A DNA stretch of 64,000 bases from Patescibacteria group bacterium (GTDB lineage: Bacteria; Patescibacteriota; Patescibacteriia; Patescibacteriales; JBAZCA01). The stretch lies in assembly GCA_041661505.1 (NCBI GenBank), contig JBAZUF010000001.1, forward strand, positions 305,576-369,575, in the 5' to 3' direction. The position numbers and the translations under genes are program-made. Of the stretch, positions 30,025 to 52,900 are shown one piece after another. Position 1 is the stretch's first letter. Each line of letters begins with the position of its first letter. The notes beneath the pieces were generated by a model that saw only the letters and a program-made list of their open reading frames with translations, searched no databases and was not told where the DNA came from.

Positions 30025-30025
30025 T

Positions 30026-30637: not shown

Positions 30638-30659
30638 ATTAAACTCTAATTAATATCCG

Positions 30660-32570: not shown

Positions 32571-32581
32571 TTTTTTGTTTC

Positions 32582-33262: not shown

Positions 33263-33284
33263 GGTTTTTTTGCTAGCCGCCGGG

Positions 33285-33740
33285 CTATTTTATTGAACTG
33301 ATTTCCTCGCCGGCCTCCTCATCCCGATAAGCTCCGTGCGTATCAACGATTAAAGAAAGCTGGGCCAGCCGGGATTTCGGGAAAGTCCGGTGCGGCTCGG
33401 ATTGAATTTTATCCTGGGGCTTAGTTTCTATGCCGGTATTAACCCAAAGCGGATCGCTATTCCAGTTAGACCAGACTCGCAAGGGCGGCCTTTTTAAGGT
33501 TTCTATGAAATTTAAAATAAAATAGTGGAATGGCCGGCCGTTAATTTTCAAAAATGCAAAAACCCCGCCCAGGCATAAAAGGAGCAGACCGATAACCACA
33601 AACATCTCAAAATCAAAAATTTTGTAGCACAGGGCGATTAAAATAAAATCTGAAAGCATTATTATAAATTGCCGGGTCGTTATCGGTCCGATAATTTTGT
33701 CTTCAACGTCAATAAATTGGGGAACGGTAAATTGCTGCAT
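33285..33740 (-). CDS. PrgI-family (VirB3-like) small membrane protein
   Basis: N-terminus QFTVPQFIDVEDKIIGPITTRQFIIML followed by two TM spans, which is the PrgI-family hallmark. Positioned directly upstream of the VirB4-like gene. Confidence 0.6.
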   Translation of the reverse strand: MQQFTVPQFIDVEDKIIGPITTRQFIIMLSDFILIALCYKIFDFEMFVVIGLLLLCLGGVFAFLKINGRPFHYFILNFIETLKRPPLRVWSNWNSDPLWVNTGIETKPQDKIQSEPHRTFPKSRLAQLSLIVDTHGAYRDEEAGEEISSIK

Positions 33741-33743
33741 AAA

Positions 33744-35384: not shown

Positions 35385-35430
35385 CCTCTTTATTATAACA
35401 TATTCCAGTCGGAAGATGAAAATGGACAGG

Positions 35431-36363
35431 CTATTTCTTCACAATCCTGAAGAAGCAAAAGAGCAGCGCCAGACTGGCGGCTATTTGAACCGGATTTAAA
35501 ACATTCCGGTTGAGAAAATAATCAAATATAACGGCTGATAGCGGCCAGGCTAATTCAAAGATGGTGGCGGCCGATGCGGTTATTTTTTTGAGCCCATAAT
35601 AGTAGATAAACATGGCCAAGGCGCCGCTTGAAAATACAATAAGGAAAAAAAGCTTCGTTTGGACGGGCGTAATCTGTCCCAGGGCCGCAAAACCGCCAAA
35701 AAATAAGACATATCCTCCGGCTAAAACCGTAGTCAGAGCGAAGCGCAGGGCCGCGGTCGACCCGAAATCCAGCTTATTGACGATTCCCTTGCCATACACG
35801 GTTGAAGATCCAAAGGCAAAAGCCGCGATTACGGCAAAAAGCGCCGCCTGGTGGGTGATCATAATTTCCCGGGGGTCCACCAGCTTGCCGAAAGTCAAAA
35901 AATAAGCGGCGACAATCGCCAGCCCGGCCCAAAGATAAAAATCTTTTTTCAATTTTTCGCCTAATACCAAGCGCGCCAGAATCAGGGCAAAAACCGGCTG
36001 AAGCTTTTGCAAGATCACTACTGTGGCAAAAGTAACTTCGCCGTTAACCGCCGCGAAAAACGCTTTGGTAATAAAAAGCGTTCCGATCAGCCCGCCGAAA
36101 ACCGAAACCCAGGCAATCGCGCCCCACTCCTTTCGCCCCAAAGCCTTAATTTTCGCCCAACCGAGAAATATAAACGGGCAAAGCACTATAAGCCCCAAAC
36201 CGTGCTCAATAAAAACCACCAGTCCGGCCGGAAGCGCGTAAAGTTTGGGCCGGATAAAAGTCCCGTCCAAGCTCCAAAGTAGTGCCGCGAGCATTATGGC
36301 CCCGGCTCCCAAAAATTTAGTTTTATCGTTTTTTATATTTTCCATCATATAACAGGCAGACAA
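35431..36363 (-). CDS. EamA/DMT-family transporter (10 TM spans)
   Basis: Two EamA-like halves of about five TM spans each. The start may be the internal MMENIK. Confidence 0.8.
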   Translation of the reverse strand: MSACYMMENIKNDKTKFLGAGAIMLAALLWSLDGTFIRPKLYALPAGLVVFIEHGLGLIVLCPFIFLGWAKIKALGRKEWGAIAWVSVFGGLIGTLFITKAFFAAVNGEVTFATVVILQKLQPVFALILARLVLGEKLKKDFYLWAGLAIVAAYFLTFGKLVDPREIMITHQAALFAVIAAFAFGSSTVYGKGIVNKLDFGSTAALRFALTTVLAGGYVLFFGGFAALGQITPVQTKLFFLIVFSSGALAMFIYYYGLKKITASAATIFELAWPLSAVIFDYFLNRNVLNPVQIAASLALLFCFFRIVKK

Positions 36364-36448
36364 AAATTATTTCTTTTTCGAAGCGAGGACTGTTTGAGAC
36401 CGCCGACAGGCGGGCGAGTTCCACAGCGAGAAAAAGAAAAATTTTTGT

Positions 36449-37615
36449 CTAGCACCCAGCTTCTTTTTTTAAAGTCTCCGCCATATCCGTCGCTTCCCAG
36501 GTAAAATCCTTATCATTCCGCCCAAAATGGCCGTAAGCGGCGGTCTTCTTATAGATCGGCCGCTTTAAATTAAGCTTCTCGATAATTTGCTTGGGCCTAA
36601 AATCAAAATGCTTTTTTACCAGTTCAATTATTTTATTCTCGTCGATTTTATTGGTGCCGAAAGTATTTACGTAAACCCCGACCGGCTGGGCAACACCGAT
36701 GGCGTAAGCCACTTGCAGCTGGCATTTATCCGCTAGCCCGGCGGCCACTATATTTTTCGCGACGTACCGCGCCATATAAGCGCCGGATCGGTCCACTTTA
36801 GTCGCGCATTTTCCCGAAAACGCTCCGCCGCCGTGCGCGCCCACTCCGCCGTAAGTATCAACGATTATTTTTCGCCCCGTAAGCCCGGCATCAGCCGGCG
36901 GTCCGCCCATTACGAAGCGGCCGGTTGAATTGATAAATACCTTGGTTTTTTCGTCTAATAAATCTCCCAAAACCGGTTTAATAACTTTTTCGCGGATGTC
37001 TTCGCGCAACGCTTCGCTCGAAACCGCTTCGCTGTGATGGGCGGCGATAACGACAGTTTCCACCCTAACGGCATTGCCGTTATCATATTCAACCGTTACC
37101 TGGCTTTTTCCGTCCGGCCGGAGATATGGCAGAGTTCCGTTCTTTCTGACTTCCGCCAGTTTGGCGGTTAATCGGTGGGCTAAAATTATCGGCAAGGGCA
37201 TCAGCTCCGGAGTTTCATTGGTAGCAAAGCCGTACATCAATCCCTGGTCGCCGGCTCCCTGCTCTTTAAATTCTCCGGCGCCTTCGTCCACGCCCTGGGC
37301 AATATCCGGGCTTTGTTCGTGCAAGGTTACAATCACCCCGACATCATCACAGCAAAAACCAAATTCCTGCTTGTCGTAGCCAATCCCGCGCAAAACGTCG
37401 CGGACCACTTGTTCAACATTAACATAAGCCTTGGTCCGGGCTTCTCCGCCGACTAAAACCAAACCGGTAGTGCAAAAACATTCGATCCCGGCGTGCGAAT
37501 CCGGATCTTGCTTTAACATCTCGTCGTAAATCCCGTCCGAAATCTGGTCGCAAACTTTGTCCGGGTGCCCTTCGGTAACCGACTCGGACGTAATAAGCCT
37601 CGTATTTTTCTCCAT
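36449..37615 (-). CDS. metK: S-adenosylmethionine synthetase
   Basis: [49 protein letters not shown]. The start is placed at MEKNTRL (37615); the track ORF extends to 37669. Confidence 0.93.
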
Positions 37616-37638
37616 ACTCTTTTTTTTGGAAGTAGAGT

Positions 37639-37690
37639 AAATGAGGACAGAAAGTAAATAGTTTCCCATTAAAACCCGCTATCCTCATCT
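37639..37690 (-). promoter_or_regulatory. Long hairpin in the ahcY-metK spacer (candidate metK leader element)
   Basis: On the minus transcript, agaugaggauag pairs with cugucctcauuu over 12 bp, including two G-U pairs that would be A-C mismatches on the plus strand. It encloses about 28 nt, ends about 20 nt before the metK ATG, and is not followed by a U-tract. Confidence 0.3.
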
Positions 37691-37742
37691 GCTAACTTTC
37701 CGTTATTAAACTAATTGTTAATTGATAATTGTAAATTTATAA

Positions 37743-39041
37743 TTAGGTTCCGATTTCCCAGCTCTTCAAATACTTTTCCTGTTCGTTCGTAAGCTTATCA
37801 ATACTAATCCCCATTGATTTTAATTTCAAATCGGCAATCCAGTCTTCGATTTCTTCCGGGACGTTATACACTTTTTTCTCCAGCTTTGTTTTACTTTTTA
37901 CAACGTATTCGGATGCCAAAGCTTGCGTCGCAAAACTCATATCCATAACCGAAGCCGGGTGCCCTTCGGCGGCGGCCAGGTTGATTAAGCGCCCTTCGCC
38001 CAAAAGATAGATGCTTTTTTGCTTGCCCGCCCCGCCTTTGGCTGGGGCGCGGCCTAAAACATACTCGTCCACGAAATTCCTTATATTTTTATTCATTTTT
38101 TTGGACAGCTTTTTTAATTCCGGAATGTTTATTTCAACGTCAAAATGCCCTGAATTGCATATCATCGCCCCGTCTTTCATTAGTTTAAAATGCTCGCCAC
38201 GAAGGACATTAATATCGCCGGTCAAAGTGCAGAACAGATCGCCAACCTTGGCGGCGTCCAGCATCGGCATAACGTCAAATCCGTCCATCGCCGCTTCCAA
38301 AGCTTTAATTTTGTCCACTTCGGTTACAACGACTTTCGCTCCCATCCCGCGGGCCCGCGAGGCAAACCCTCTTCCGCACCAGCCGTAGCCGGCAACAACG
38401 ACGGTTTTCCCGGCAATCAGTATGTCGGCGGCGCGGATTATTCCGTCCAATGTCGATTGACCGGTGCCGTAGCGGTTGTCAAACATATTTTTGGTCTTGG
38501 CATCGTTAACCGCCACAATCGGCACCAACAGTTTTTTTTGCTTTTCTAGCGCCTTCAGCCTAATGACTCCCGTTGTAGTCTCTTCCATACTGCCGACAAT
38601 TTTCGGCGCCAGCTTTTTGTATTTGGTATGGATTAAAGACAGGAGATCGGCCCCGTCATCCATGGTGATATTCGGCGAAAAATCCAAAGCCGCAACTAAA
38701 TGCTTGTAATAGGATTCTTTGCCTTCTCCGCAAATCGCGTAAGTCGGGATTTCATAGTCTTTAACCAAAGAAGCGGCGACGTCATCCTGTGTGGACAATG
38801 GATTGGAGGCGCATAAAAGCACGTCGGCTCCCCCCGACTTAAGAGTGCGCACTAAATTCGCAGTCTCGGCCGTAACGTGCAGGCAGGCTGACATTTTCAT
38901 TCCTTTGAACGGCAGTTCCCGCGCGAATCTTTTTTTAATCGCCCCTAAAACCGGCATGTCCTTTTCCGCCCATTCGATTCTTTTTCTGCCGCCTTCGGCC
39001 AGCTTAATGTCTTTAATGTCAAAATTCATATTTCTAATCAA
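37743..39041 (-). CDS. ahcY: Adenosylhomocysteinase (SAH hydrolase)
   Basis: [15 protein letters not shown], the NAD-binding [11 protein letters not shown] motif, and NSGHFDVEI. 432 aa. Confidence 0.93.
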
Positions 39042-39068
39042 TGTTTTTAATTTTAAAACTTTTTGATA

Positions 39069-40031
39069 TTACAATTTTTCATTATAAGCCTGCAAAAATT
39101 TTCCCGCCACGCTTTTCCAGGTAAACGCGTGGTTTTGCGTCCCGTACTTTTCTACGGCGTAAGAAGCGACTACGCTCGCGAGCTTAGCGCTCTTTTCCAT
39201 ATCCCATCCCGATGCCAGTCCTTTCAAAAGTCCGGCCCGGTAGGCGTCGCCGGCACCAGTCGGATCTTTTAGTTCTTTCGCCTTAACCGGGCGCACCTTA
39301 ATCCTCCTGCCTTTAATAAATATCTCCGATCCAAGCTCTCCTTTGGTGATAATTAATGTTCTTACTTTATCAATTAATTGCTTGCTTGTCCATCCTGTCT
39401 TTTTCTTTATCATTTCTACTTCATAATCATTGCCGATTAAAATTTCCGCCGCCTCCGCCGCCCTTTTAATTACCTCGCTTTTTAAAGCCGGAATAGCTTG
39501 TCCCGGATCAAAAATATATCTGATATTAGCTTTTTTGTAGTATCCGCCGTATTCTCTCATATCGTCTATATTGCCGGGCGAAACAATGGCCAGGCTATTT
39601 TTTAAGGCCTTAGCGCTAAATCCCTTAAAGACTTCTTTTCCCCGCGCTACATTCATCGCTCCCATGTTAAACCCGGTTATCTGGTTATCGGCTTTGTCGG
39701 TAATAATATAGGCTGAAGCAGTGTGTTTTTCCTTAATCTCTTTCACTTGGGAAATGTCCACCTTTTTTTTCTTGAGCCATTTTTTGTACGACCCAAAATC
39801 GGTTCCGGCGGTTGCTAAAATAAAAGGTCGCTCATTAAGAAGCGCCAAATTATAAGCAATATTTCCGGCGCAGCCGCCAAAATTTTCCCTCAACTCGTTA
39901 ATGTTAAAGGCAACGTTTAAATTGTGGATTTTGTCCGGCAAAATATGGTCGGAAAATTTCCCGGGGAAATCCATAATCCGGTCAAACGCCAAAGACCCGG
40001 AAACTAATATGTTTTTAATTTTATTTGCCAT
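39069..40031 (-). CDS. PfkB-family kinase, probably adenosine kinase
   Basis: N-terminal GSLAFD and a C-terminal DPTGAGDAYRAG ATP/anion-hole motif. The methyl-cycle context suggests adenosine kinase. The ATG at 40031 (MANKIKN) is preferred over the TTG at 40037. Confidence 0.7.
   Translation of the reverse strand: MANKIKNILVSGSLAFDRIMDFPGKFSDHILPDKIHNLNVAFNINELRENFGGCAGNIAYNLALLNERPFILATAGTDFGSYKKWLKKKKVDISQVKEIKEKHTASAYIITDKADNQITGFNMGAMNVARGKEVFKGFSAKALKNSLAIVSPGNIDDMREYGGYYKKANIRYIFDPGQAIPALKSEVIKRAAEAAEILIGNDYEVEMIKKKTGWTSKQLIDKVRTLIITKGELGSEIFIKGRRIKVRPVKAKELKDPTGAGDAYRAGLLKGLASGWDMEKSAKLASVVASYAVEKYGTQNHAFTWKSVAGKFLQAYNEKL
39955..40013. repeat. Direct repeat copy A (kinase 5' coding end)
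   Basis: A 45-nt stretch, atccataatccggtcaaacgccaaagacccggaaactaatatgtt (39969..40013), is identical to 41181..41225. About 14 more near-identical nt lie on the low-coordinate side. Confidence 0.85.
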
Positions 40032-40033
40032 AA

Positions 40034-40489
40034 TCAAAGCAGTTTTTTCTGCGGATTATGCTTATTAATATAATTTTTTATTTCACCAATAAAATTTTCG
40101 GCCGTTTTAATTGACTCGTCGGCCTCCGTGTCCGACACAATTCCGACGTCATAAATTATCTCATGTCTATTTTTTCTCATCTGATCAAATTCTTTGATTA
40201 TTGATGAATAGCTCGCGCCAATAATTGCTTCCGCAGACTCCACCACTGTTTTATGGAACCCCTTGACTTTCGGGCGATAACCGTAAAAAAATACGAGCGC
40301 TATTCCGGCCTGGAGCATAGCGTCATAGGCCATCCGGTAAGCGCCAATTTTATCGCTTCCTATAAGCAACTTAGCGTTTAATAAATCCCTGCCAGCTCTT
40401 TCAATCCTCTTAATAATCTGGTCGAATCTTATTCCTTTTTCTTTCTGAAGAAAACCGGCTTTGGCTAAATTTTCTAAAGTTTTTTTCAT
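40034..40489 (-). CDS. HEPN-domain protein (toxin-type partner of the MNT)
   Basis: 151 aa, all-alpha, with an R-x-N-R-H-E-x-x-Y segment (QMRKNRHEIIYD). Directly downstream of, and overlapping, the nucleotidyltransferase gene. Confidence 0.6.
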   Translation of the reverse strand: MKKTLENLAKAGFLQKEKGIRFDQIIKRIERAGRDLLNAKLLIGSDKIGAYRMAYDAMLQAGIALVFFYGYRPKVKGFHKTVVESAEAIIGASYSSIIKEFDQMRKNRHEIIYDVGIVSDTEADESIKTAENFIGEIKNYINKHNPQKKLL

Positions 40490-41042
40490 CTCCTTTTATA
40501 AATATTTTTTTGCTTTTTACAACATTCTCTATAAAACTGTTGCCCTTCTCAATTTCTTTTTCTAAGTCTCTGGGCGAAAATATCCGGTAATTAATTTCCC
40601 GGCCGATTTTTTTCTCAATTAAACTTATTTTCTCCAATAAATCTCTCTTATTAATATCGGCGCCGATCAAAAAAAGGTCTATGTCGCTTCCGGCTTTATC
40701 CTCGGAACGGGCGCGCGATCCATAAATAAATGCGCACAAAACGCCGTCTAGATTTTTCACAGCTTTTTCCAGCGCGCTTTCTATTCCGACTGATTTAGCA
40801 ATAATATTTTTTAATTCGCGGTAAAGCGGATAATTTTTATTCAATTTAAAATATTTTTGTTTTCCCTTAAATTCAGAAGCAAATGTTCCTTTCTTTTCAA
40901 GCTTATTCAGTTCTCTAGCCAAATTAGAAGCGTCCTCTTTTAAGAGGCGCGCTAATTCCCTAAGATACAATTCCGCTCCCGGATGATCAAAATAATAAGC
41001 GTAAAGTTTAGCTTTTAATTTGGATTTTAAAAAGTTAACCAT
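40410..41042 (-). CDS. Winged-helix plus minimal nucleotidyltransferase (MNT) protein
   Basis: N-terminal wHTH-like segment (LRELARLLKEDASNLARELNKLEKKG), then the NTase motif IYGSRARSEDKAGSDIDLFLI (GS-x10-D-x-D). The likely start is MVNFLK at 41042. Confidence 0.7.
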   Translation of the reverse strand: MVNFLKSKLKAKLYAYYFDHPGAELYLRELARLLKEDASNLARELNKLEKKGTFASEFKGKQKYFKLNKNYPLYRELKNIIAKSVGIESALEKAVKNLDGVLCAFIYGSRARSEDKAGSDIDLFLIGADINKRDLLEKISLIEKKIGREINYRIFSPRDLEKEIEKGNSFIENVVKSKKIFIKGDEKNFRKFSQSRFSSERKRNKIRPDY

Positions 41043-41113
41043 AACCGATATGAGTGAGGAAACGGCAAATATCAATTCGCCGCTTCCGAACGAATGAGGA
41101 TTATATCATCAGA

Positions 41114-41148
41114 TACAATTGTAGTATGTTTATACTACAATTGTAGTA
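41114..41148. promoter_or_regulatory. Tandem palindromic operator-like sites upstream of the MNT/HEPN pair
   Basis: tacaattgtagta occurs at 41114..41126. The perfect 16-nt palindrome tactacaattgtagta lies at 41133..41148, about 70-100 nt upstream of the MNT start. Confidence 0.4.
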
Positions 41149-41166
41149 ATTACTAACAACAATGTC

Positions 41167-41240
41167 AATTTCCCCGGAAAATCCATAATCCGGTCAAACG
41201 CCAAAGACCCGGAAACTAATATGTTGAGCTTGTTATTCAT
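41167..41240 (-). pseudogene. Orphan 5' fragment of the PfkB kinase gene (direct repeat copy B)
   Basis: The minus strand from the ATG at 41240 reads MNNKLNILVSGSLAFDRIMDFPGK. That matches MANKIKNILVSGSLAFDRIMDFPGK of the intact kinase. The reading then diverges. Confidence 0.65.
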
Positions 41241-41288
41241 ACTTCGAATACTTTACCTTATTGCCGGCCGCACTTCAAGCCTTGACAA

Positions 41289-42260
41289 TTAACCGCCAAA
41301 ATCCTGTTTGACCGGCTGGGACGGATTCCCGTTTCCTCCGCCCGAAGCTGATCCGCTTTGGCTGTATATTTTCCTAATCTCTTCCTCAATCGCCCTTCTT
41401 TCAAGCGAACCAGCGGGATATTCCAATACTAACTCTTTTAAACTTTTCAGCTGCGTATTTCCCGCGCCTTCAGAAGATTTGTCAGGCGCATTTCCGCCAG
41501 TGTTTAATTTTTTCAAGACCGCCCTCACCTCTTCAATTTCTTTATCAATGGGCTCTAGCACGCCCTCTTTAAAAATATAATTTTTCCCATCAATTGCCAT
41601 CGGCACATGCTCTTCAAATCCTTGCGGCGAAAAAGAAGAATGCTTTAGCCATTCATATAAATTAAACAAAATTTTAAGATTTTCAGTATCCTCATTTGTT
41701 AATTCCTTCGTGCGTTTAAGATCTATAAAATATTGGTTTCTTTTTAGATTATCCGCAACTTCTGTTCCAAGTTTCCCATTATAATCTTTAAGCCAGTCTC
41801 CGACGGTTTTTATCAAGGCTAGGGGAGTAATTGTTTCCCGATTTTCCAGCAAAGCCCTTTTTAAAGTTTCCCTGCATCTGTCTCTCTCTTCAGTGATTTC
41901 AATATTCAATAATTTATTTTTTACCTTATCAGTTACGTCATACCCTTCTTTCGCAAGATTGTAATGCTTGGTAAAATTATTTTTTAAGAGGGCTGAAATA
42001 CTAGCGTAATCAAGCAGGGGAAGAGCGATGAATTTAAGATTTATCAAAGCCTTGCTATAATAATTAAAAAACTGACCGTTTTGTATCGCCAGATTTTTAT
42101 GTTTTAGAAGAGCTTTCTCTAATAAATTTCCGGCTTTAAGCGCCGTCGGCGCGTCATCAGCTTCAATTATCTTCTTGAATAAATTTTTTGTAGACTCAAA
42201 AAAATCTTTATCCAATAATGCCGTCGGAGTATTTGAATTGTTTAGATTGTTTATTGGCAT
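41289..42260 (-). CDS. Hypothetical soluble protein with Gly/Ser-rich C-terminal tail
   Basis: 323-aa ORF, mostly predicted helical, co-directional with the 850-aa membrane protein. No motif recognised. Confidence 0.45.
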   Translation of the reverse strand: MPINNLNNSNTPTALLDKDFFESTKNLFKKIIEADDAPTALKAGNLLEKALLKHKNLAIQNGQFFNYYSKALINLKFIALPLLDYASISALLKNNFTKHYNLAKEGYDVTDKVKNKLLNIEITEERDRCRETLKRALLENRETITPLALIKTVGDWLKDYNGKLGTEVADNLKRNQYFIDLKRTKELTNEDTENLKILFNLYEWLKHSSFSPQGFEEHVPMAIDGKNYIFKEGVLEPIDKEIEEVRAVLKKLNTGGNAPDKSSEGAGNTQLKSLKELVLEYPAGSLERRAIEEEIRKIYSQSGSASGGGNGNPSQPVKQDFGG

Positions 42261-42331
42261 AACTCTTTAATAGTCTGCAAATTTTAAACGATTTGATTTA
42301 TTTATTTTCGGTTCCATTTTAACTCAAACTG

Positions 42332-44884
42332 TTATTTTAGGGCGTTCGCATATTTATCAAACTCTTCTTTATAATTTGATATTGAAGCTTTCGCGGCTAC
42401 CTCAATTATTTTAAGTATATCGGGACTTATTATTCCGTCATCAACTGCTTTTTGTAATTTATCTTTTTCGCTCCATAAATGCTTAGCCACGCTTTCTTGA
42501 ATATTTCTTTTTAAATTTTCCTGCCCGTCAGGAGAATCGAATGACTTTAGAATCATAAGACCGCCGACATCAAGATGGAATTTGCCGGTAATGTCGTGAT
42601 GTCCGTAATCCAGACGGTTAAAATTCCTTGCCCTGTTTCTGGCATCCATTTTTCCGGTTTCAGTAGCGACAAAAGCGGCATGCTCAACTTCATTCATTTC
42701 TCTCCATTTTCCATTTTCCATCGTATAAGCGCCGGTAGCCATCCAATGATGGCCCTGCCTCTTATTCAGCATGGCGATTTCACTGCCCAAAGCAAAAGCG
42801 TCCTGCTGGGAAAGTCCGGCGTCCATGTTGGCTAATCGGGGATCTGCCTTCTTTTCCTCGTCGCTTAATGTGCCGGAAAAGGCCCTCATTAATTTTTGTA
42901 AGCCCTTAAACCCGGTATCACCGGCCAAAGGCTTAAGAAATTCGTTATCGTCATAATTTTGAGTCATCCATTTAGTAATGGCTTTTACCATAGCCTTATC
43001 TTTTTCGTTTATCGCGTCATTAAGGATTCTTAGTAATTCTGAAGAGTCGGTAATATTCCTAATTTTGGCCATTTTCTCATTAACCGCCGCCTGTTCCGCC
43101 GCTCTGGCCTGGAAATCATACATAGGAACGTTCTTGTCATATTCTTTTTGTTTCACTATGGCAGTATTTATATATTCGGCTTTTTCATCATCAGTAAAAG
43201 CCCTATTCATGTTATTGTTGTTTGTAGCGAAGTCAAGCTTACGCTGTTCACTGTCTCTCTCCTTGGTAAGCGCGTTTTTCTTTTCTTCATTTGTCTCGGT
43301 ATCAATCTGATCATCCAGATCGTCTATTCTCGTTGTCAATTCGATTGCTTTATCCCGTTTCTTGACTGCGGTTAGAGCCGAATATTCGGCTTCAAATTTA
43401 ACCTGGGGAAGTTCATTTTCAAGAACCTCTCTTCTTGCCGCCAGCCTCTTTCCTCCCAAAAATCTCTGTCTTAGTCCTTTCTTGCTGGTAACTTGCTCCC
43501 AAGCCGTTCCCGGCGTTCCGGTCATGGCTAAAGCACCGCGAAATGTTCCTTTCGTAGCCATAACTTCCTCGGCCTTTTTCATGCCGGAAGCGTACCTTTC
43601 TTTCTTTCTTTCGGCCCGTTTTTCCTTTATCCCGCCCCAAACTCTGGCTAAATTAAAGTCCACCCCTGTTTTTTCATGGGTCTTGTCAATTAAGAAGCTG
43701 CCCAATGCTCCGGCTCCTGCCGCGCCCAATTTAAGCGGAGCCATCGCCGCTTTTTGAGCAAGCCCCTGAACTTTCCCCGCCACCTTAGCCATCAGCCCGC
43801 CGGCCTGCTGGGCGACCATCAGCCCGCCCATTAGAAAACCGATGACGATAATGTAGGTTTGAAATCCTGTCGAGCAAAAAAATTTACTTAAACCGCCGCA
43901 CACTTCACTAGTTGAAATACCGGTTGATCCTGTTTGGAGAGTTCCGGCCGACCCCGTCGCCGTAGTTAAGGCTAACCAAAGAAAAAAAGCTAAAACCGGA
44001 CCAGTGGTAACGTATTTGGCAAATTCCGACCACCATTGGCTCGCGTATTTTTGGCCGGCTGGAAAAGCGGATAATAAAAACGCGGCCGGAGAAAGGATGG
44101 TATATATCCAAAGCATTATTATCCGGACAACTAAAACCGCAATCATCACTAAGATTACGATATCAGTAACAATCAAAGCAATAACCCCTAAAACAAGAGA
44201 AATTACTATATTAAAAGTTTCAATTTGTTTTGAGCCGCTGGCGGTATCTTTAAGAGCATCATTGCTTATTACTCCAATGTTCAATATTTGGGTTTTATCA
44301 ATCAAAGCCCCTTTCGAAGCGGCAAAGGCGTTAACAAAGGTAAGCATTATTACCTGGGATGCATCAATCATCAGCCCGCAGATGGTTTTGGAAAAATTTA
44401 TCAAAACCGCCATTATCAATAATTTTGGGAGTAGTTTTTTCGCGTTATAACTCTCAACCCTTAAAATCGTCGCGAAGGCGATAATTAAAAGGATTAAAAT
44501 AAAAAACATGTTGCAAAGATCGCGGACAATAACCCAGCCATTGGTAACCGCTGACACATTGATAATATTATTATATGAAGAAACCTGTAATAGTATTGCT
44601 GTTAAAACAGTTAAAAATACGCCAAAAACAGCTAAAAAAATCTGTGCTATCCAGCCCACTACTGTTGCTATTGCACCGCCTATGCCTCCGCTTACCGTAT
44701 TCCAAACCCCATTCCATCCGGAGGTAGTATCAGTAGAAGTTTTAGTAGTGTCAGTAGTAGTTTCCCCCGCCGCATGTATGCTATGCGAAGCAAAAACAAA
44801 AACGACGAAAAGCAAAATCAAGAAAGCCAAAATGTTTTTAGCCAACAATTTTCTATTTATTTTCATCTTATTTTTTGAATTCAT
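42332..44884 (-). CDS. Large polytopic membrane protein, VirB6/TrbL-like architecture, with a roughly 450-aa soluble C-terminal domain
   Basis: Signal peptide, Thr-rich stalk (GETTTDTTKTSTDTTS), then at least 6 TM spans with a pattern like VirB6/TrbL channel subunits. The C-terminal half is charged and coiled-coil rich. Confidence 0.45.
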   Translation of the reverse strand: MNSKNKMKINRKLLAKNILAFLILLFVVFVFASHSIHAAGETTTDTTKTSTDTTSGWNGVWNTVSGGIGGAIATVVGWIAQIFLAVFGVFLTVLTAILLQVSSYNNIINVSAVTNGWVIVRDLCNMFFILILLIIAFATILRVESYNAKKLLPKLLIMAVLINFSKTICGLMIDASQVIMLTFVNAFAASKGALIDKTQILNIGVISNDALKDTASGSKQIETFNIVISLVLGVIALIVTDIVILVMIAVLVVRIIMLWIYTILSPAAFLLSAFPAGQKYASQWWSEFAKYVTTGPVLAFFLWLALTTATGSAGTLQTGSTGISTSEVCGGLSKFFCSTGFQTYIIVIGFLMGGLMVAQQAGGLMAKVAGKVQGLAQKAAMAPLKLGAAGAGALGSFLIDKTHEKTGVDFNLARVWGGIKEKRAERKKERYASGMKKAEEVMATKGTFRGALAMTGTPGTAWEQVTSKKGLRQRFLGGKRLAARREVLENELPQVKFEAEYSALTAVKKRDKAIELTTRIDDLDDQIDTETNEEKKNALTKERDSEQRKLDFATNNNNMNRAFTDDEKAEYINTAIVKQKEYDKNVPMYDFQARAAEQAAVNEKMAKIRNITDSSELLRILNDAINEKDKAMVKAITKWMTQNYDDNEFLKPLAGDTGFKGLQKLMRAFSGTLSDEEKKADPRLANMDAGLSQQDAFALGSEIAMLNKRQGHHWMATGAYTMENGKWREMNEVEHAAFVATETGKMDARNRARNFNRLDYGHHDITGKFHLDVGGLMILKSFDSPDGQENLKRNIQESVAKHLWSEKDKLQKAVDDGIISPDILKIIEVAAKASISNYKEEFDKYANALK

Positions 44885-44904
44885 AGACGGAAAGACAATT
44901 TTCT

Positions 44905-45537
44905 CTAAAAAGCGAAGGGAATAAAAAACGATGCCAAGGCGGTGAGGGATCCAAATCCCAAGTCTACGATTGCCTTAAAGGGATTGCTAATCCATCCGGT
45001 TATCATCGCTACCCCGGAAATTAAAGAAATAACCCATAAAAAAGTCGAAATTGAGGAAAAAGCCATTACGATTTTTTGCCCAGGCCTTAAATTCAGTTTT
45101 CCATCCCTTAAAAATCTCCAGCCGGCCCAAACTATATTAACTCCCGGAATCGCGCTCAAAAAATAATTTAATACAATTTTTCCAAGCCCGCTTTTCGCGG
45201 CCTGGGCCGCTTTATTTGACTGTTCTTCTTCCTGGGCTTGCGCGTTTCTGGCTCTGGCCTGTTCTTGCCTTAAATTCCTCCCGCCACCCATATCGGCCTC
45301 TTGCCCCCCGCCAGCTCCTCCCAAACCTTCGCTCATGCCGCCCTCATTAGTTCCCTTTCCCGCCTGTGGCCGGTTTCCCAGCTGGCTTCCGCCCATCTGT
45401 CCGCTGATTCTATCTTTATTGCGGCCGGCCATCTGGTCCTCCTTTAATTTTCTTCCGGCTAGCTGGCTTTGAGCCGGACCGGAAAGCTCATTGCCTAAAA
45501 CATTCTGCCTCATTGCGTTTTCGTTTTGGTTGGGCAT
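44905..45537 (-). CDS. Membrane protein with a Gly/Gln/Asn/Ala-rich disordered N-terminal half and C-terminal TM spans
   Basis: 210 aa. C-terminal hydrophobic spans (IVLNYFLSAIPGVNIVWAGW, VMAFSSISTFLWVISLISGVAMITGW, LGFGSLTALASFFIPFAF). It shares its first 7 codons (MPNQNEN) with the next gene. Confidence 0.45.
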   Translation of the reverse strand: MPNQNENAMRQNVLGNELSGPAQSQLAGRKLKEDQMAGRNKDRISGQMGGSQLGNRPQAGKGTNEGGMSEGLGGAGGGQEADMGGGRNLRQEQARARNAQAQEEEQSNKAAQAAKSGLGKIVLNYFLSAIPGVNIVWAGWRFLRDGKLNLRPGQKIVMAFSSISTFLWVISLISGVAMITGWISNPFKAIVDLGFGSLTALASFFIPFAF

Positions 45538-45640
45538 ACAATTATTCGCTTCTCATCAGATTATCCTGAAAATTTTCATGCGACTCTACTTACGACTATA
45601 TCACGCGCCATACATTCAGACCGCCTTAAACCCGATTTCC
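45510..45640. repeat. Cassette-junction repeat, copy 1
   Basis: gttttcgttttggttgggcataca ... tatatcacgcgccatacattcagaccgccttaaacccgatttc is homologous to 46238..46350 (gttttcgttctggttgggcataca ... tatatcacgcaccacacagtcagaccgccttaaagccaatttc). Confidence 0.7.
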
Positions 45641-46269
45641 CCGATTTTCCGCCCTTTCTCATCGCTTGCCAGCCTGTTTATTATATCAAAAATTTTGGCA
45701 ATCTGCTTATTATAGCCGCGCTCCATTTTTTCAATTTTATCCGCCAAATCTTTATAGGAATAAACCAGCTTTCTTATCTTAACGAATGTGCGCATTATAG
45801 TTATATTCACTTCTATCGCCTTCTTGCTTTTTAAGACGCTGGAAAGCATAGAGACACCCTGCTCGGTAAAAGCGTAAGGCAAATACTTTATATTTTTGCC
45901 TCTTTTAGACTTTGAGGTCACAATTTGTGACCTTGAATTTTGCGAATTTTCGCTAACTTTCTCGTTCAAGGTCACAATTTGTGACCTTGAACGATCTTCG
46001 ATTATTATTCCCTCCCTTATCAAAAATTCTGTTTCCATCAACGTTAATTGAAACATAAAATCTTCCGGAAACCTTTCCTTATTTCTTTTTACCGCCTGAT
46101 TCAAAACCTTAGTTGGCACACCGTACAACTCCGCTAAATCCTTATCAAGCAATACCTTTTCTCCCCGCATTAGAAGAATTCTTCCTTCTATCCTCTCGAC
46201 GGGAATCAAGCTTGTCCGGCTGATTTTTCTATCGGCCATATTCATATTGTTTTCGTTCTGGTTGGGCAT
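45616..46269 (-). CDS. ORF6N-domain (KilA-N/Bro-N-related) DNA-binding protein
   Basis: IEGRILLMRGEKVLLDKDLAELYGVPTKVLNQAVKRNKERFPEDFMFQLT, a doubled R-S-Q-I-V-T motif, and LPYAFTEQGVSMLSSVLKSKKAIEVNITIMRTFVKIR. Confidence 0.7.
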   Translation of the reverse strand: MPNQNENNMNMADRKISRTSLIPVERIEGRILLMRGEKVLLDKDLAELYGVPTKVLNQAVKRNKERFPEDFMFQLTLMETEFLIREGIIIEDRSRSQIVTLNEKVSENSQNSRSQIVTSKSKRGKNIKYLPYAFTEQGVSMLSSVLKSKKAIEVNITIMRTFVKIRKLVYSYKDLADKIEKMERGYNKQIAKIFDIINRLASDEKGRKIGEIGFKAV

Positions 46270-46350
46270 ACATATTACTAAATCTCATGCATGAGCGCAC
46301 CTTTATTATATCACGCACCACACAGTCAGACCGCCTTAAAGCCAATTTCT
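46238..46350. repeat. Cassette-junction repeat, copy 2
   Basis: See copy 1. It includes the MPNQNEN start codons, the spacer and the IGFKAV-stop end of the neighbouring ORF6N gene. Confidence 0.7.
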
Positions 46351-46895
46351 TCTCTACCCGCTTTTTCCTCGTCTCGCGCCAAAAGCCTTAGCGCGGCGAA
46401 TATTTCCGTAATCTTCTTATCATGCTTTTTAATCCCTCTCTCCAATTCGTTAATTTTTTCCGCCAAAGCTTTATATGACAAAGCGAAATCCCGCAGTTTA
46501 ATGAATGTCCGGATTATGGCTATATTTATCTCTACCGACCGTTCGCTTTTTAGGACGCTGGAAAGCATGGCAACACCGTGTTCGGTGAACGCATAAGGCA
46601 TTTTTCTTGTGCCTCCCCAACTTGATGTCGCAATTTGCGACTTCAAGTTTGGCTTATCTTCGCTATTTTTACAACTTGATATGCCAATTTGGCACTTCAA
46701 GTTTTCAAATTCTTTCTTTGTTAATTGAAACATAAAATCAGAAGGAAAGCGTTCCGTATTGCGTTTTACTCCTCTATTTAATGCTCCTGTTTCAACCCCG
46801 TAAAGCAAGGCCAAATCCCGGTCAATCATAACTTTTTGCCCGCGAATCAGGTAAATCTTGGCTTTTATATTTTCGTATGGGATTATTTTAACCAT
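46326..46895 (-). CDS. ORF6N-domain (KilA-N/Bro-N-related) DNA-binding protein, tandem paralogue
   Basis: IKAKIYLIRGQKVMIDRDLALLYGVETGALNRGVKRNTERFPSDFMFQLT, KCQIGISS and KSQIATSSWGGTRKMPYAFTEHGVAMLSSVLKSERSVEINIAIIRTFIKLR. Confidence 0.75.
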   Translation of the reverse strand: MVKIIPYENIKAKIYLIRGQKVMIDRDLALLYGVETGALNRGVKRNTERFPSDFMFQLTKKEFENLKCQIGISSCKNSEDKPNLKSQIATSSWGGTRKMPYAFTEHGVAMLSSVLKSERSVEINIAIIRTFIKLRDFALSYKALAEKINELERGIKKHDKKITEIFAALRLLARDEEKAGREEIGFKAV

Positions 46896-46917: not shown

Positions 46918-49900
46918 TTATCTTTCCGTTACAACCACCCACCCGTTATACGGCTGGTAGCTATAGTCGTTAATGCAGTTTTTGGCCCAAACCGGGGTAT
47001 CGACATAATTTCCGCTCGCGTCAACCTTAAAGGAGCACCAGCCCCAGTTGTCTTTCACTTTTACTTTCGGCTGAACCATGCAGCAATCGGAATTAACCGG
47101 GCAACTCTCGCCATTTCCATCGCCTTTATAATTGCTGGCCGCTCCATTATTATTTCCGCAGTATATTTGATCACAGCCGATATCTCCGGCTTTGCAGGAA
47201 TATTTTTTCTTTCTCATGTCCCAATAATCGTATAAATGGAAGAGCGAATGAGGACTGGAAGTAGCCTCGCGGTCATACATCTCGACTCCGGTAATAGTCG
47301 TTGATTCTTTGTCGCCCCAAATTACGCTAAGCATTACCATTGGCAGTTGTTGTGAGTCAACAAAAGAGTTAAAAGTCAAGTTCATCAATCCGTTCTTAGA
47401 CCTTACGGCCTGGGAGGAAGCTTGCTTGTCAATCTTCAAATTTTTAATTTTGGGCGGTATGGAACAATAGTCGCAAGTCTTCGATGATCCCGCTTCGCAC
47501 GAAAGACAGCTTCCGCTAACGCCGTCATACCCGGTGCATTTCATGGTAGTGGGATTAAAAGTCGGCCTGGTAGCGCTGGTACAATAGATTCTGGGAGGCG
47601 TCCAGGACGGGGAGGTAGCTTTCAGATACTTTTCCGATGTAGCGTCCCAAGTCCAAGCCCCGTAGCTTTTCGCGAAAAGCCGCTTAACATAGACAGGTGA
47701 AACGTTGCTACCCGCCCTGGCTTCATCGCTATCCGAATCCAGCATTGCCAGCTGATCCCACTCGTAGGGGTTGTCTTCATATCCCGTGGGCGGGACGACT
47801 GATCCAAAGGGTGGATAATCAGCGTCATAATCACATGTTTTGGAATTATTACTGCAATAAACTTTATATTTGCTTCCCTTGTAAGCGCGCGAACTCCAAA
47901 ATTTATTTTGGCCGGTCGGAGTAACAACCTGAACAATATTTGCCGCGACATACATGGAAATTTTTTTTCGGTCTGTGGTTGCTGTTATATATTCTCCCGG
48001 ACCGCAGGCGGCATGTATATAAGTTATAATCGGCGTGGCTTTTGACGGGCAATAGTAATCGGTTGTTCCATCCGAATAGATTGACTCAACTTTAGTACAA
48101 TCTACCGCGGTTTCTGCGGCTGTGCCGAATTTAGGCTTACAACCCAAATAAGTGGTTTTTAGGGTATAGGAGCCGCCTGATTCGGAAAGCGAGTAGGAAT
48201 AACCGTAAGCACTGCCCGAAGCTTCGCCCGGACAGACTTCTGACGCGCCACTATAAAAACTCACTAGGTTTTGTTTCTCCTCGTTTGCGCATCCCTTATT
48301 ATCTCCAGGCGAATCGCAAGAAGCGCCGGTGTATTCAACTTTTGTTCCGACTTTAATCGGAATCAGCTCTTCAGTGTCGCAAGTATAGCGCTTAGTCATA
48401 TTGGTCGCGTAATAAAGAGGATAGCGGTTATTATACCCGGCGCCTTCTTCAATGCCGTCGCCTTTTACTTTATCGACCGGCCACCACATAATGCAATTCT
48501 TCGTTGAGCCCGGCGAACGGTCAAATTGCAGGCAATATCCGGGCCAGCCTTTTTCCCTAACTCCCGAGTCGTTAAAATAATCGCAGGACAAAGAATCCGT
48601 TTCCGGGTAGAGGCGGCATAATTGGTGCATATTAAAGGTCGACGGCGTCTGGCTGGGATCATTTGCCCCTTCAAGCGCCGGACGAAGTCTAATATCGTCG
48701 ATGTAGATATTTCCGGTGCAATCCCCGTCAGTCTGGCAAAGAAAATTGGGATCCGTCGTCATATCAACCGCGCCCAGCCACAAGGCTATGGTTCTGTGTT
48801 TAATTGAAGCGTCTTTAGAAACGGTCTTAAATTTTGTTACAACCGTATGCCACTCCAGCCCGGGAGAACTATAAGAATTGTCTATAAAAGCCTTATTATT
48901 CCAGTCGCTTGCGCTGTTTATGCTTATCATCGGATCATGTACCGTGACTACCGCCCTAATATCATGATGTTTGCCGTTGGACCTGAAATTCAAAGTGTTA
49001 ATCTCGTAGCTCAAAATATATTCGGTGTCTGGTTCTACGTCTATCTGTTCCGAAACCGGACCAGTGCTGAATTCTTCGCTGGAGTATTTTAGAAAGCTCT
49101 CTCCTTCTACTGGATAGCCAATTCCGCCCTTGCCGCTTATACCGGCTTCCTGCTGGGCCGCGTAAGGGCTGGTTATTACCGAAAACAAGCTGGAAGACCA
49201 GCTTCCGGTAGCTGGCGTCCAGCCGGTCGGATATTTATTGGTTCCGTAGGTTTCAAAATTTCCGTTCGGCACCCAGGCCGCTTCTCCCACCTGCTTCATC
49301 TGGCCAAACGGATAAAACCCTCTCATTCTAAAATCACTGCTCGTCGAATCCAGCCCAACTTTCGCGTATCCGGAAACATTGGCATATTTCGCGATAGAGG
49401 CCGAGTTTCCGGCGATCGCGGTCTGCATACTTATAGTTGCGGGGCTGACAAAGCCGTTGCAATTGCCGGATTCGTCAAAAGAATTGCAGGTGCCGATATC
49501 AAAACAGCTTGTCTTTTCTTTTCCATTTTCATCCTTGGTTACGACCGAACTGCGGCAGGTGAGCCACTTGTCGCAGACCCGGTCAGGGGAAACTTTAATT
49601 ATCTTGTTTGAATCCCAATTTCCCGGGAGTCCGGACTGGGGGGAAACGCTGGAGCTGGCGACCGTTAAGTCGGCGTCATACTGCAATTCCTCCAGGCCGC
49701 TTGATCCAAAAATTCTTTGGTTAAACAACACGCACCCTTTGTCGTAATTAATCAGCCCGTTACAGCTCGTATAATCAATCTTGTCCTTTAGCTGATAACT
49801 TATCATGGTATTTTTAACTACGACTTCATCCCCCTTTACCTTATTATATCTGATAACTTCGCAGCCTGTGTTGTCGGCCACGTAAAATAACTGGCTCTGA

Positions 49901-52900
49901 TTGTGCTTTGTCTGCACTTCGGCTGCCTCGCTCAAGCTCGAATCCGTCCCTAGCGCGAAAATCTTTGCCTCGCAAGAGACTCCGACTTTAAACTCGCCCG
50001 AAGAAATTTGGTTGGCGCGGATTATGTAAAGAGTATTATTTTGCAGGGATATTGGCTGTTTCCAGGGCCCGCTTCCAATCCAGCCGTCCCCATTCGTTCC
50101 ATTGCCGTCAATGTCCTGGAAGTCGCTATTGAAAACCAAATTGACCGAGGGCTTGCTCATCGGATCAATAAACTCGCCACAACCCGACTCGCTTGACGGG
50201 CAGATTCCGGCAAATCCGCTTTTTGTCTGGTCAATCTCCGCTCCGCCTTTGCCAAAGGTTCTGGGTTCTGTACCAGTATCGGTGCAATCATAGCTATTAT
50301 CGTCTTCAACGCATTTATAATAACAGCTTTTTTCTATGCAAGCGCCTTTCCCGCCCAAGCAGTCGCTTTCTTCTTCACAGGCCGTTCCGGCGGCTCCGCA
50401 GTCTGAATCGGTTTGGCAAATTTGCGTTTCGCCGCTTTCGATTGTCCCGTTTGCCGTTACATCGTCACAGCGGTTAATTTTCTTTTTCCACCACTTCGTT
50501 CCCCCGGTCAAAGTTTTATGTTCGCAAACCTGGTCGCCGGGGTCTTTAAAATAACTATAGCTTCCGCTAGAGCTGGATTTCCATTGGTCGCATCCCTCGG
50601 CGTCTTTTGTACAGAGCGTGGACGAATATTCGTCCGGGTCGTTAACCAGGTAAGCAGCGGTATGGAGGGTCTGGCCTTCATAATTATAATTTTTACCGAG
50701 CTTTTGGCATCCTTTGTCTTCGGAATTGCAGTTATATTTGGAATTATAGACCGCGTAAATATAACTGTCGCCTCCAACTTTCACGCAGTCTGCCTTATCA
50801 TTAACCGCGCCGGTCGTAGCGGTGCAATTGCCGTCGCCGTTAGCGTCATTCCAGATGCCGCCGCCAGCTTTAGAATAATTTTTCGTATCAATCATCAGCT
50901 CGCAGCCGATTGCCGATTCCTGGCATAACCGGGTAAAGCTCTTTAAATAGGCAATTTTTCCCGACTGGTCGGAATATTTGTCGCATGAAAGCATCTCCTG
51001 GGGCGAACAGCGGTTATTATAGCAAGTTTCTTTGCCTTCAGGATTATCAAGGGCGTTGTCGCAGGAAACCGGCGTTGTCCATGAATTCTTTATCAGGTAA
51101 TACCGGTCGACGATTTCCACCAGCTTAACGTCGTCTATATAGAAATCCGAGGCGGCCGAAAAAATAATGCTTTCATCTCCCTGGACCTTGGAAAAATTAT
51201 CGATATTATAGCGGTAAATTTTCCAGTCTCCGCCTTCGGCGGTCATTATATCTCCGGTCATCGGGGTAGTTGTTCCGTAGCCGTCAAGGAAATAAACGTT
51301 GATTTCCGCGGCTGAAGTTTTCGCCAAGAAAGTAAGCGTATAAGAATAACCGCTATGGAGAAGCGACTCGACGCTGGTGCCCGCCTTGGCGCCGTCAGTC
51401 CCAGCCTTAACCAAAAGAGACTTCCCTCCGACTTTTAAGGCGGTCGCGCTCGGCTCAATACTCGATCCGGAAAGCCCGTCCCAGCCGGTAAAATCTTGAT
51501 CCTCGTCAAAGCTGTTAGCTAGAATCGTCCGCATATTACTGCCCTGATTGCCCGAGTATTCGCGGCAGCCGACTTGGGAATCCTGACAGCTTATTCCCTC
51601 GCCCGGAATGGCCGCGTATAAGCAAGACGCCTGGCTGACATTCCATCTGCCGCCATTCTTGCAATAAACATACTGCCCCTCTTCAAGCAAACAGCTTGAC
51701 TTTCCTTCAGCCGCCGAATCAGAGCAGGCGGTAGCGCAGGCGCAGTAGTTCGAAGCGCTTCCGCATTGGTCCTCGCAATCTTCTTCTGAATATAAATTAT
51801 TATTTTCGCTCCGGCGGTAAGGATGGCAATTATCCGAACAGGAAATCGTCGAGGTATATAGATGATAGGAAATTTCTCCAGCCCGGTTATAAAACTGCCG
51901 GCAATTGGAATTATATCTTCCATCGGTTATCGGCAAGCCGTAAGTATATTGGTTGCAGTCGCCCCGATCATCATAAGTGACGGCCGGATCGTTATTATAA
52001 ACCGGAACGATTTGGTCGCTCGTATAAACGACGGGCGATTCATCCGGAGCGCCATTATCTTTTCCTGATTCATTGCTGTCAACCTGCAGATTAAAGACTT
52101 TCAGCTGGAAGCCTGACTCGCTTGAACCTTCCCAAGTATAAAATTCGGAGCAATTGGCTTTGGCGCTGGCCGGCACTTGGCAGGTCCCCCCGGTCGGGCA
52201 AACTTCGTTTTTACAGGGAGTAGCCAGGTCGCTTGAACAAACCAATTCCGGCTTAATGCACTGGCGGAGATAGGTATAATTCTGGCGGGCTTCTCCTTTT
52301 TTCTCGGCCTCGTCTAGGTTGGTGAATTGATCACAGCCGACCGCGGTGGCGGCGCAAATTTTAGCGCTTTTCGGAATAAAATATTCGTCGCGTTTCGAAT
52401 CGAACTTGGCTTCTTTCTGGATATAGGTATCATAACCGACGCATTCGGCCGGGCACTGGTCGGTCTTTCGGACGCTGGCCGGTATGCTCCCGCCGTCCTT
52501 TACCGAAGTATACATATTGCAATCAACTTCATCTTCGTTGCAGCGGCGGGCAAAATTAGAACAGGCGGACGGGGCGCCGGACTTTAAGGAATAATCCGGA
52601 GTGGCTCCGCTTGAATTTTCATAGCATTCAGAAGCGTAATAGTCCGGCATAAATTTCTCATAGACTTTTCCGCTGGCCTGATAATCGCTGTATTCCGTAG
52701 CGGATGCGCCGAATTCCAGTTTGACGGCGTCAATTAAACAATCCGAACCGCTAAAGTCCTTTACGCCGATTTCCAGGCTGTTGGCTTCGCTGGCAAACCC
52801 ATAATCTTCGGGAAAAGTATAGGTCAGGGTAAGCCTTTGCCAGCCGCTATTATCTGATATTAAATTCGAGGTTAAAAGCTCAAGGCTGTTATAATCATAA

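Follow-up and report, generated by a model that had tools for sequence, protein, structure and literature searches.

Which gene supplies the channel subunit of a type IV secretion system (T4SS) whose ATPase operon encodes no protein of that kind? The question is raised by a stretch of 64,000 nucleotides from a Patescibacteria group bacterium (GenBank assembly GCA_041661505.1, contig JBAZUF010000001.1, positions 305,576 to 369,575 of the forward strand), referred to here as the window. It carries an operon with VirB4 and PrgI homologues at 29.2–35.4 kb and, several kilobases further on, three genes encoding proteins of 210, 850, and 323 residues (p210, the 850-residue protein, and p323). An original prediction, made from the sequence of the window, described this trio as the second half of a split T4SS locus, with the 850-residue protein as a VirB6/TrbL-type channel subunit accompanied by two orphan partners.

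The 850-residue protein as a candidate VirB6 subunit

The three genes are co-directional, and their predicted outer coordinates agree exactly with the list of open reading frames (ORFs; Table 1). The gaps between them are short, 20 nt between the p210 and VirB6-like genes and 71 nt between the latter and the p323 gene, and no terminator-like site was found between the genes of the trio on the minus strand. These are not chance ORFs, since all three proteins have homologues. A word-indexed search with the 850-residue protein returned 1,753 matches, and an exhaustive search with its family profile returned 21,255 cluster representatives at E ≤ 1e-3; p323 has 52 homologues, and p210 homologues are present in about 75 related loci. 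The 850-residue sequence is also identical to that of a protein from a Patescibacteria metagenome-assembled genome (MAG).

The architecture proposed for this protein, a signal-like segment followed by a Thr-rich stalk, at least 6 membrane spans, and a large charged C-terminal domain, is borne out by hydropathy and by an AlphaFold2 model built from an alignment of 35 homologues. The mean predicted local distance difference test score (pLDDT) of the model is 76; the score is about 90 for the C-terminal domain and about 80 for a large part of the membrane core. By hydropathy, the signal-like N-terminal segment spans residues 13–33 and leads into ...SIHA/AG; the Thr-rich linker occupies residues 40–55. 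Hydropathy and the model place hydrophobic helices at residues 68–102, 115–140, 150–188, 223–271, ~293–312, and 340–361, and the helix at 223–271 is long enough for two spans. The protein is thus polytopic (taken here as at least five hydrophobic helices), with 6 to 7 such helices between residues 68 and 361. Most of the invariant residues of the family fall within this core (W117, R121, D122, N125, N163, S165, D174, R254, W259, S265, P266, G295, and P296).

Evidence for the identity of the core comes from curated families and from predicted structure. The precomputed Pfam record for the identical sequence lists PF19590 (TrbL_3) as an unmarked entry, which in that record denotes E ≤ 1e-5. Among the homologues of the 850-residue protein, PF04610 (TrbL) is the sole recurrent Pfam family, matched at E ≤ 0.01 by 19 of 88 members (7/35 in one sample and 12/53 in another). 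All of these matches are sub-threshold, with a best E of 3.7e-5 and a best member score of 23.9 bits, and they consistently align protein residues ~100–330 with profile positions ~10–209. NCBIfam gave weak matches in 2 of 35 members alone, to the CD3337/EF1877 mobilome membrane protein. When the AlphaFold2 model was compared with 350,542 PDB chains by Foldseek, the best four matches were all chains of the R388 stalk complex (7o3v_J, 7o3v_G, 8rt9_F, and 8rtd_L), with probabilities of 0.99–1.00, target-normalised TM-scores of 0.43–0.52, and 283–306 aligned columns at a root-mean-square deviation of 7–9 Å. The 260–272 modelled residues of these targets fit TrwI, the VirB6 protein of R388, which has 342 residues and has chains in those entries; TrwJ/VirB5 (226 residues) is shorter than the targets. 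In a viral structure library (BFVD), TrbL-labelled proteins appeared at ranks 9 and 34 with low probabilities of 0.44 and 0.33.

Several results weigh against this assignment. PF19590 was absent from the results of our local Pfam scan of the 850-residue protein, and in the same scan PF04610 scored 8.7 bits (E = 1.8) against a gathering score of 25.9 bits; direct scans of local Pfam and NCBIfam yielded nothing significant. The TrwI matches have E values of ~0.12 and borderline TM-scores. A search of PDB sequences with the family profile recovered no VirB6, only coiled-coil noise in the charged linker. The comparison with PrgH and TcpH that the original prediction had proposed as a check showed no similarity at the sequence level: when the family alignment was compared by hhalign with TrwI, PrgH, Tn916 Orf15, and TcpH, nothing was significant, with probabilities of about 3% at most (2.9% for TcpH, 3.1% for Orf15, and 0.4% for PrgH). 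Each reference was a single sequence, which makes the test insensitive. Residues ~238–291 of the query ('LSPxAFLLxAFP...QWW') are where the alignments to TrwI and Orf15 and part of the longer one to PrgH fall, which we take as a hint only. The exhaustive family-profile search informs on family size only, the best 150 of its matches all being full-length family members.

Because the PF19590 record, the recurrent PF04610 matches, and the TrwI matches agree despite their individually weak statistics, we nevertheless assign the membrane core, on the basis of sequence comparison and the predicted structure, as a divergent VirB6/TrbL homologue that stays below the curated threshold of PF04610. The original call of a VirB6/TrbL-type channel subunit is thus supported.

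Beyond the core, the 440-residue C-terminal domain (residues 410–850) is charged, with 75 K/R and 72 D/E residues. It is conserved across the family and confidently predicted (pLDDT ~85–95), and it has no credible match in Pfam, PDB sequences, Foldseek PDB folds, or BFVD. Hydropathy analysis places a K/R-rich segment after the last membrane helix, and VirB6 of A. tumefaciens has its N-terminus outside and its C-terminus inside the cell; for these reasons, residues 410–850 are probably cytoplasmic. Combining a membrane region with a large hydrophilic C-terminal domain, the 850-residue protein resembles the extended VirB6 proteins, a recognised class in which the role of the extra domain is unexplained (PMC12857230).

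Fixed partners and a split gene cluster

The two proteins encoded beside the extended VirB6-like protein are of different kinds. The N-terminal ~115 residues of p210 are charged and rich in Gly, Gln, and Asn, as in the disordered half of the original description, which also gave p210 three C-terminal membrane spans. Hydropathy gives two strong stretches (residues 155–184 and 190–208), and a weaker one at ~118–140 aligns with a conserved helix of the family ('LIPSFGLxLIWINIHVFL'), for a total of 2 to 3 spans. An 'FCKLGEEW' loop present in most members of the p210 family is missing from the window copy, and p210 matches no Pfam or NCBIfam family. p323 contains no hydrophobic stretch by hydropathy, in keeping with its description as soluble; its AlphaFold model is mainly helical (pLDDT 85), and its C-terminus carries a conserved motif, YPxGSLERRAIEEEI. 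It matches no known family and has no PDB match by fold (Foldseek) or by sequence. Comparison by hhalign of alignments of p210, p323, and two proteins of the VirB4 half, p546 and p203, with 40 T4SS proteins from pCW3, pCF10, Tn916, and R388 (the last from NC_028464) gave nothing significant.

When the ORFs of related loci were searched with profiles, 70 of 75 eligible loci had a p210 homologue immediately before the VirB6-like gene, and 74 of 76 had a p323 homologue immediately after it. Because these positions are fixed beside VirB6 across loci, p210 and p323 are, as judged from gene order, obligate partners and not incidental neighbours. They are orphans in annotation, as had been said of them, but not in conservation.

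To place the trio in its wider setting we surveyed 83 loci, 80 of them from GTDB species representatives with 10-kb flanks and three from long contigs, and mapped the window proteins onto them by tblastn. The recurrent order, all genes co-directional, is ksgA followed by the genes for a TSP3 protein, a giant protein, p210, VirB6, and p323, then a PfkB-AhcY-MetK-(EamA) cassette of S-adenosylmethionine (SAM)/adenosine recycling in some loci, and then p546, PrgI, TrsD, VirB4, p203, and (ComF). The giant protein lies upstream of the trio in 63/83 loci; in the window it has 2758 residues and matches no Pfam family. For the downstream side, 56 loci were informative, each having at least 9 kb of downstream sequence. 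The VirB4 half follows p323 directly in 20 of them and follows the cassette, as in the window, in another 19, so that VirB4-side genes lie on the same strand within 10 kb of p323 in 39/56; the cassette itself is present in 36 and absent from 20, and no locus is without both cassette and VirB4 half (0/56). In the relatives, VirB6 ends 1.1–9.4 kb before p546 begins (median 2.8 kb). In the window, the two halves are separated by 5.9 kb (35384 to 41289), and VirB6 stands 11 genes from virB4 on the same strand.

The VirB4 half has the expected composition. Pfam finds the TraG P-loop, AAA_10, and DUF87 in the 636-residue VirB4, TraC_F_IV (weakly) in a 226-residue TrsD-like protein, and PrgI in a 151-residue protein, so that one operon encodes the separate TrsD-like N-terminal protein, PrgI/VirB3, and VirB4 by which a Patescibacterial T4SS is recognised. 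None of the four proteins checked by hydropathy (p546, PrgI, the TrsD-like protein, and p203) is polytopic, so that none of those checked in this half is a VirB6 candidate; the 29.2–35.4 kb operon thus lacks a VirB6-type component, as had been claimed.

In the remaining 17 of the 56 informative loci the cassette is present and no VirB4-side gene lies within the 10-kb flank, a result that counts against a single cluster. A VirB4 homologue search returned none of its best 120 matches (all at least 77% identical) from the contigs of the complete genomes in which virB4 is not within 10 kb. Taken over the survey as a whole, gene order indicates one conserved cluster, split in this genome by later gene insertions. 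The predicted split locus is borne out by the contiguity of the halves in relatives and by the recurrence of virB4 and prgI near the trio, and Pfam and family lists confirm that what separates the halves here is the EamA/metK/ahcY/kinase operon and a HEPN/MNT cassette.

The HEPN/MNT cassette is a recent 1.2-kb insertion, to judge from its own promoter-like site (near-consensus, TTGACA-17-TACAAT, 41168..41140) and the 59-nt direct repeat that flanks it (39955–40013 and 41167–41225, 97% identical). The repeat duplicates the 5' end of pfkB next to the ribosome-binding site, comprising its first ~20 codons, and the duplication has left an orphan 'MNNKLNILVSGSLAFDRIMDFPGK' start at 41240. A 22-nt tandem repeat (41114–41157) lies beside the cassette, and MNT/HEPN genes occupy the same place in two of the surveyed loci (L043 and L074). 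On the other side of the trio, the two tandem ORF6N units measure ~710 nt each, and a 31-nt direct repeat (45510–45540 and 46242–46272) makes the upstream ORF6N gene begin with the first seven codons of p210 (MPNQNEN). The position of ORF6N varies among relatives, either before p210 or after p323. The ORF6N and HEPN/MNT insertions share a signature, a copied 5' end of the downstream gene.

Table 1. Coordinates of the VirB6-like module and of the features around it in the window
Feature	Coordinates	Strand	Basis and remarks
p323 gene, 323 aa	41289..42260	minus	ORF list, homologue search, hydropathy
Extended VirB6/TrbL-family gene, 850 aa	42332..44884	minus	PF19590 record, PF04610 family matches, Foldseek
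C-terminal hydrophilic domain, residues 410–850	42335..43657	minus	pLDDT, fold and profile searches; fold unmatched
VirB6-like transmembrane core, ~residues 66–365	43790..44689	minus	Hydrophobic helices; homologues match TrbL profile positions 10–209
p210 gene	44905..45537	minus	ORF list and hydropathy; candidate small membrane partner of the VirB6-like protein
VirB4 half: p546, PrgI/VirB3, TrsD-like (226 aa), VirB4 (636 aa), p203, ComF	29209..35384	minus	Pfam; order conserved in relatives
PfkB-AhcY-MetK-EamA cassette between the T4SS halves	35431..40037	minus	Pfam and precomputed family lists
HEPN/MNT cassette, recent insertion	40034..41075	minus	Pfam; flanking direct repeat; own promoter-like site
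Two tandem ORF6N genes between giant gene and p210	45616..46895	minus	Pfam ORF6N
Giant Cys-rich protein, 2758 aa, N-terminal membrane anchor	46918..55194	minus	Conserved cluster member
TSP3-repeat protein, 241 aa, membrane-anchored	55238..55963	minus	Pfam, synteny, hydropathy; conserved first cluster gene after ksgA

Some further observations concern the cluster and its surroundings. VirB4 (30660–32570) is ~78–90% identical across its best 120 homologues, compared with ~35–47% for the VirB6-like protein across a comparable set, levels that suggest two parts of one machine evolving at very different rates. p203 (30026–30637), encoded directly after virB4, has one N-terminal membrane helix, and its best hhalign result, not significant at a probability of 10%, was with the VirB8-like PrgL of pCF10 and covered 70 columns in the C-terminal part; VirB8 homologues are almost confined to class ABY1 in the published survey of Patescibacterial T4SSs (PMC12102498). 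The title 'uncultured Gammaproteobacteria bacterium' stands on many of the GTDB records that carry the cluster (L006, L007, L009, L011, L012, and others; binchicken and SRP co-assembly MAGs), and these titles look mislabelled for loci with a Patescibacteria-specific cluster. The window also encodes a second TSP3 protein on the opposite strand (57471–58415), RecG (17772–19850), ComF, KsgA, and, as a gene of the type IV pilus, a T2SSE ATPase of the PilB type (8325–10058). The window thus holds genes of both envelope machines reported essential in Saccharibacteria, the T4SS and the type IV pilus.

Proposed role of the module and rival explanations

We consider it most likely, with a probability of roughly 0.78, that the trio is the membrane-platform module of a chromosomal, non-conjugative T4SS, in which the extended VirB6 and p323 would engage VirB4/TrsD or cargo and p210 would be accessory. 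In this scheme the 850-residue protein would be exported by its Sec-type signal, leaving its N-terminus outside the cell, and would cross the membrane about 7 times through the VirB6/TrbL-type helical core. By analogy with TrwI/VirB6, the core would assemble into an oligomer at the base of the channel. The C-terminal domain, lying in the cytoplasm and acting with p323, would then probably dock the PrgI-anchored VirB4/TrsD ATPase, putative secreted substrates, or both, a role proposed because no coupling protein was found among the ORFs scanned. The obligate accessory subunits would be p210, a small membrane protein whose disordered tail lies in the cytoplasm, and p323, which is soluble and helical. 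Of this scheme, homology, fold resemblance, and synteny are what the data show, and topology, oligomeric state, docking, and substrate are inferred. Ancestrally, the module would have been contiguous with p546-PrgI-TrsD-VirB4-p203-ComF and downstream of the giant surface protein; the SAM-cycle cassette would have been inserted between the halves in this lineage, and the HEPN/MNT cassette more recently.

The constancy of the giant protein beside the trio invites another reading, in which the TSP3 protein, the giant protein, p210, the VirB6-like protein, and p323 form a separate envelope machine that assembles, anchors, or operates the giant protein and has no need of VirB4. The giant gene and the trio do stay together even in the 17 loci that have no VirB4-side gene within 10 kb, and the contrast between ~80% identity for VirB4 and ~40% for the VirB6-like protein among relatives would imply very different constraints on the two halves; envelope-exposed subunits, however, usually evolve faster than ATPases. 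With an N-terminal anchor or signal of its own, the giant protein needs no dedicated channel. With the VirB4 genes following on the same strand in 39 of 56 loci, directly in 20, and no VirB6 candidate among the proteins checked in the VirB4 half, we regard a separate machine as unlikely. Comparable doubt attaches to a bolder extension of the T4SS model, in which the C-terminal domain, p323, and p210 would make up a new cytoplasmic recruitment platform that replaces VirD4 and selects the T4SS cargo, and the whole supercluster (giant adhesin, T4SS, and SAM/adenosine-recycling genes) would act as a single host-contact organelle that takes up host metabolites or macromolecules; it would be surprising if this proved correct.

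Much less probable is that the likeness of the 850-residue protein to VirB6 is generic to helical membrane bundles and the protein itself an unrelated polytopic transporter or permease. Each direct statistic is weak (E = 1.8 for PF04610 and ~0.12 for Foldseek), and one source labels a homologue, P0053, as an ABC-type transporter. No transporter family in Pfam or NCBIfam was found for any of the 88 members, however, while TrbL recurs; moreover, the top four structural matches are all to one VirB6 protein, the identical sequence carries the precomputed TrbL_3 match, and the gene is in tight synteny with those for VirB3 and VirB4. An integrated conjugative element that carries these genes for DNA transfer between cells is, in our view, the most improbable reading, even though VirB4, PrgI, and VirB6 are components of the conjugation type, comF and recG lie close by, and ORF6N and HEPN/MNT genes, typical of mobile DNA, lie inside the region. 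These mobile-looking genes are small secondary insertions with direct repeats of their own, and the chromosomal context is the same in ~80 species, with ksgA upstream and pfkB-ahcY-metK downstream. No relaxase or coupling protein was found among the ~37 ORFs scanned in the window, a kind of scan that divergent relaxases would escape, and the published survey, which found relaxases in only 103 Patescibacteria genomes, concludes that the system is non-conjugative (PMC12102498).

Comparison with known secretion systems

Few machines have been shown to be essential to Patescibacteria living as epibionts, and the T4SS is one of them. The genes essential for the epibiotic growth of Southlakia epibionticum include those of its T4SS (SEML1_0006-0019; Wang et al. 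2023, PMC10633639), and the system has been proposed to export proteins or to act in another non-conjugative way (PMC10633639, PMC12857230). Against this background the present analysis identifies the VirB6 subunit in the system of the ABY1/Falkowbacteria type, finds it constantly accompanied by a giant surface protein and by a pair of uncharacterised proteins, and defines an ancestral contiguous order. The resulting full parts list can be used for structural modelling and for expression and interaction studies, and within the unexplained extended-VirB6 class the family is an example that combines a large C-terminal domain with a large membership. The finding leaves the current picture of T4SS biology unchanged.

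The system itself is the published chromosomal T4SS of Patescibacteria, which resembles the mating-pair-formation type FATA (MPF-FATA), and hence is not new (PMC12102498, PMC10633639). As described, Patescibacterial T4SSs comprise VirB4, TrsD, PrgI/VirB3, VirB6, and VirB2-like proteins, with relaxases nearly absent (Quinonero-Coronel et al. 2025, PMC12102498). The window shares the phylum, the combination of VirB4, a TrsD-like protein, PrgI, and VirB6, and the lack of a relaxase among the ORFs scanned. In class ABY1 the T4SS is co-located with comF, recG, and radA, and ksgA has been noted near virB4 (PMC12102498); comF, recG, and ksgA all accompany the T4SS genes in the window as well. The same survey recovered 480 VirB6 homologues, 304 of them within 20 coding sequences of virB4 (PMC12102498), a distance within which the window VirB6 also falls. 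No VirB2-like pilin array was identified in the window, although no search was dedicated to it, whereas VirB2-like proteins are part of the published systems. That survey (PMC12102498) describes neither the partners p210 and p323 nor the giant protein nor the SAM-cycle insertion, and we found no earlier description of the fixed p210/p323 partnership, of the constant place of the giant protein upstream, of the C-terminal domain with its unmatched fold, or of the insertion history between the halves.

Compared with TrwI/VirB6 of R388 (7o3v, 8rt9, and 8rtd), its best structural match, the window protein shares a polytopic helical core and is likewise encoded alongside VirB3 and VirB4 homologues. 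It is far longer, with 850 residues against 342, and adds a cleavable-looking signal, the Thr-rich linker, and the 440-residue C-terminal domain; it also differs in having no VirB5 partner and a monoderm host, and the pairwise profile comparison with TrwI was not significant. Extended VirB6 proteins are familiar from elements of monoderm bacteria, ConG of ICEBs1 being one of them. TcpH of pCW3 (832 residues) and Orf15 of Tn916 (725 residues) serve conjugation together with a relaxase and a coupling protein, whereas the window locus is chromosomal and no relaxase was found among the ORFs scanned, and neither these two proteins nor PrgH has sequence similarity to the window protein detectable by hhalign. 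What TcpH and Orf15 do share with the window protein is the overall build, in which an N-terminal multi-span VirB6-like region is joined to a large hydrophilic C-terminal region in a protein of similar length.

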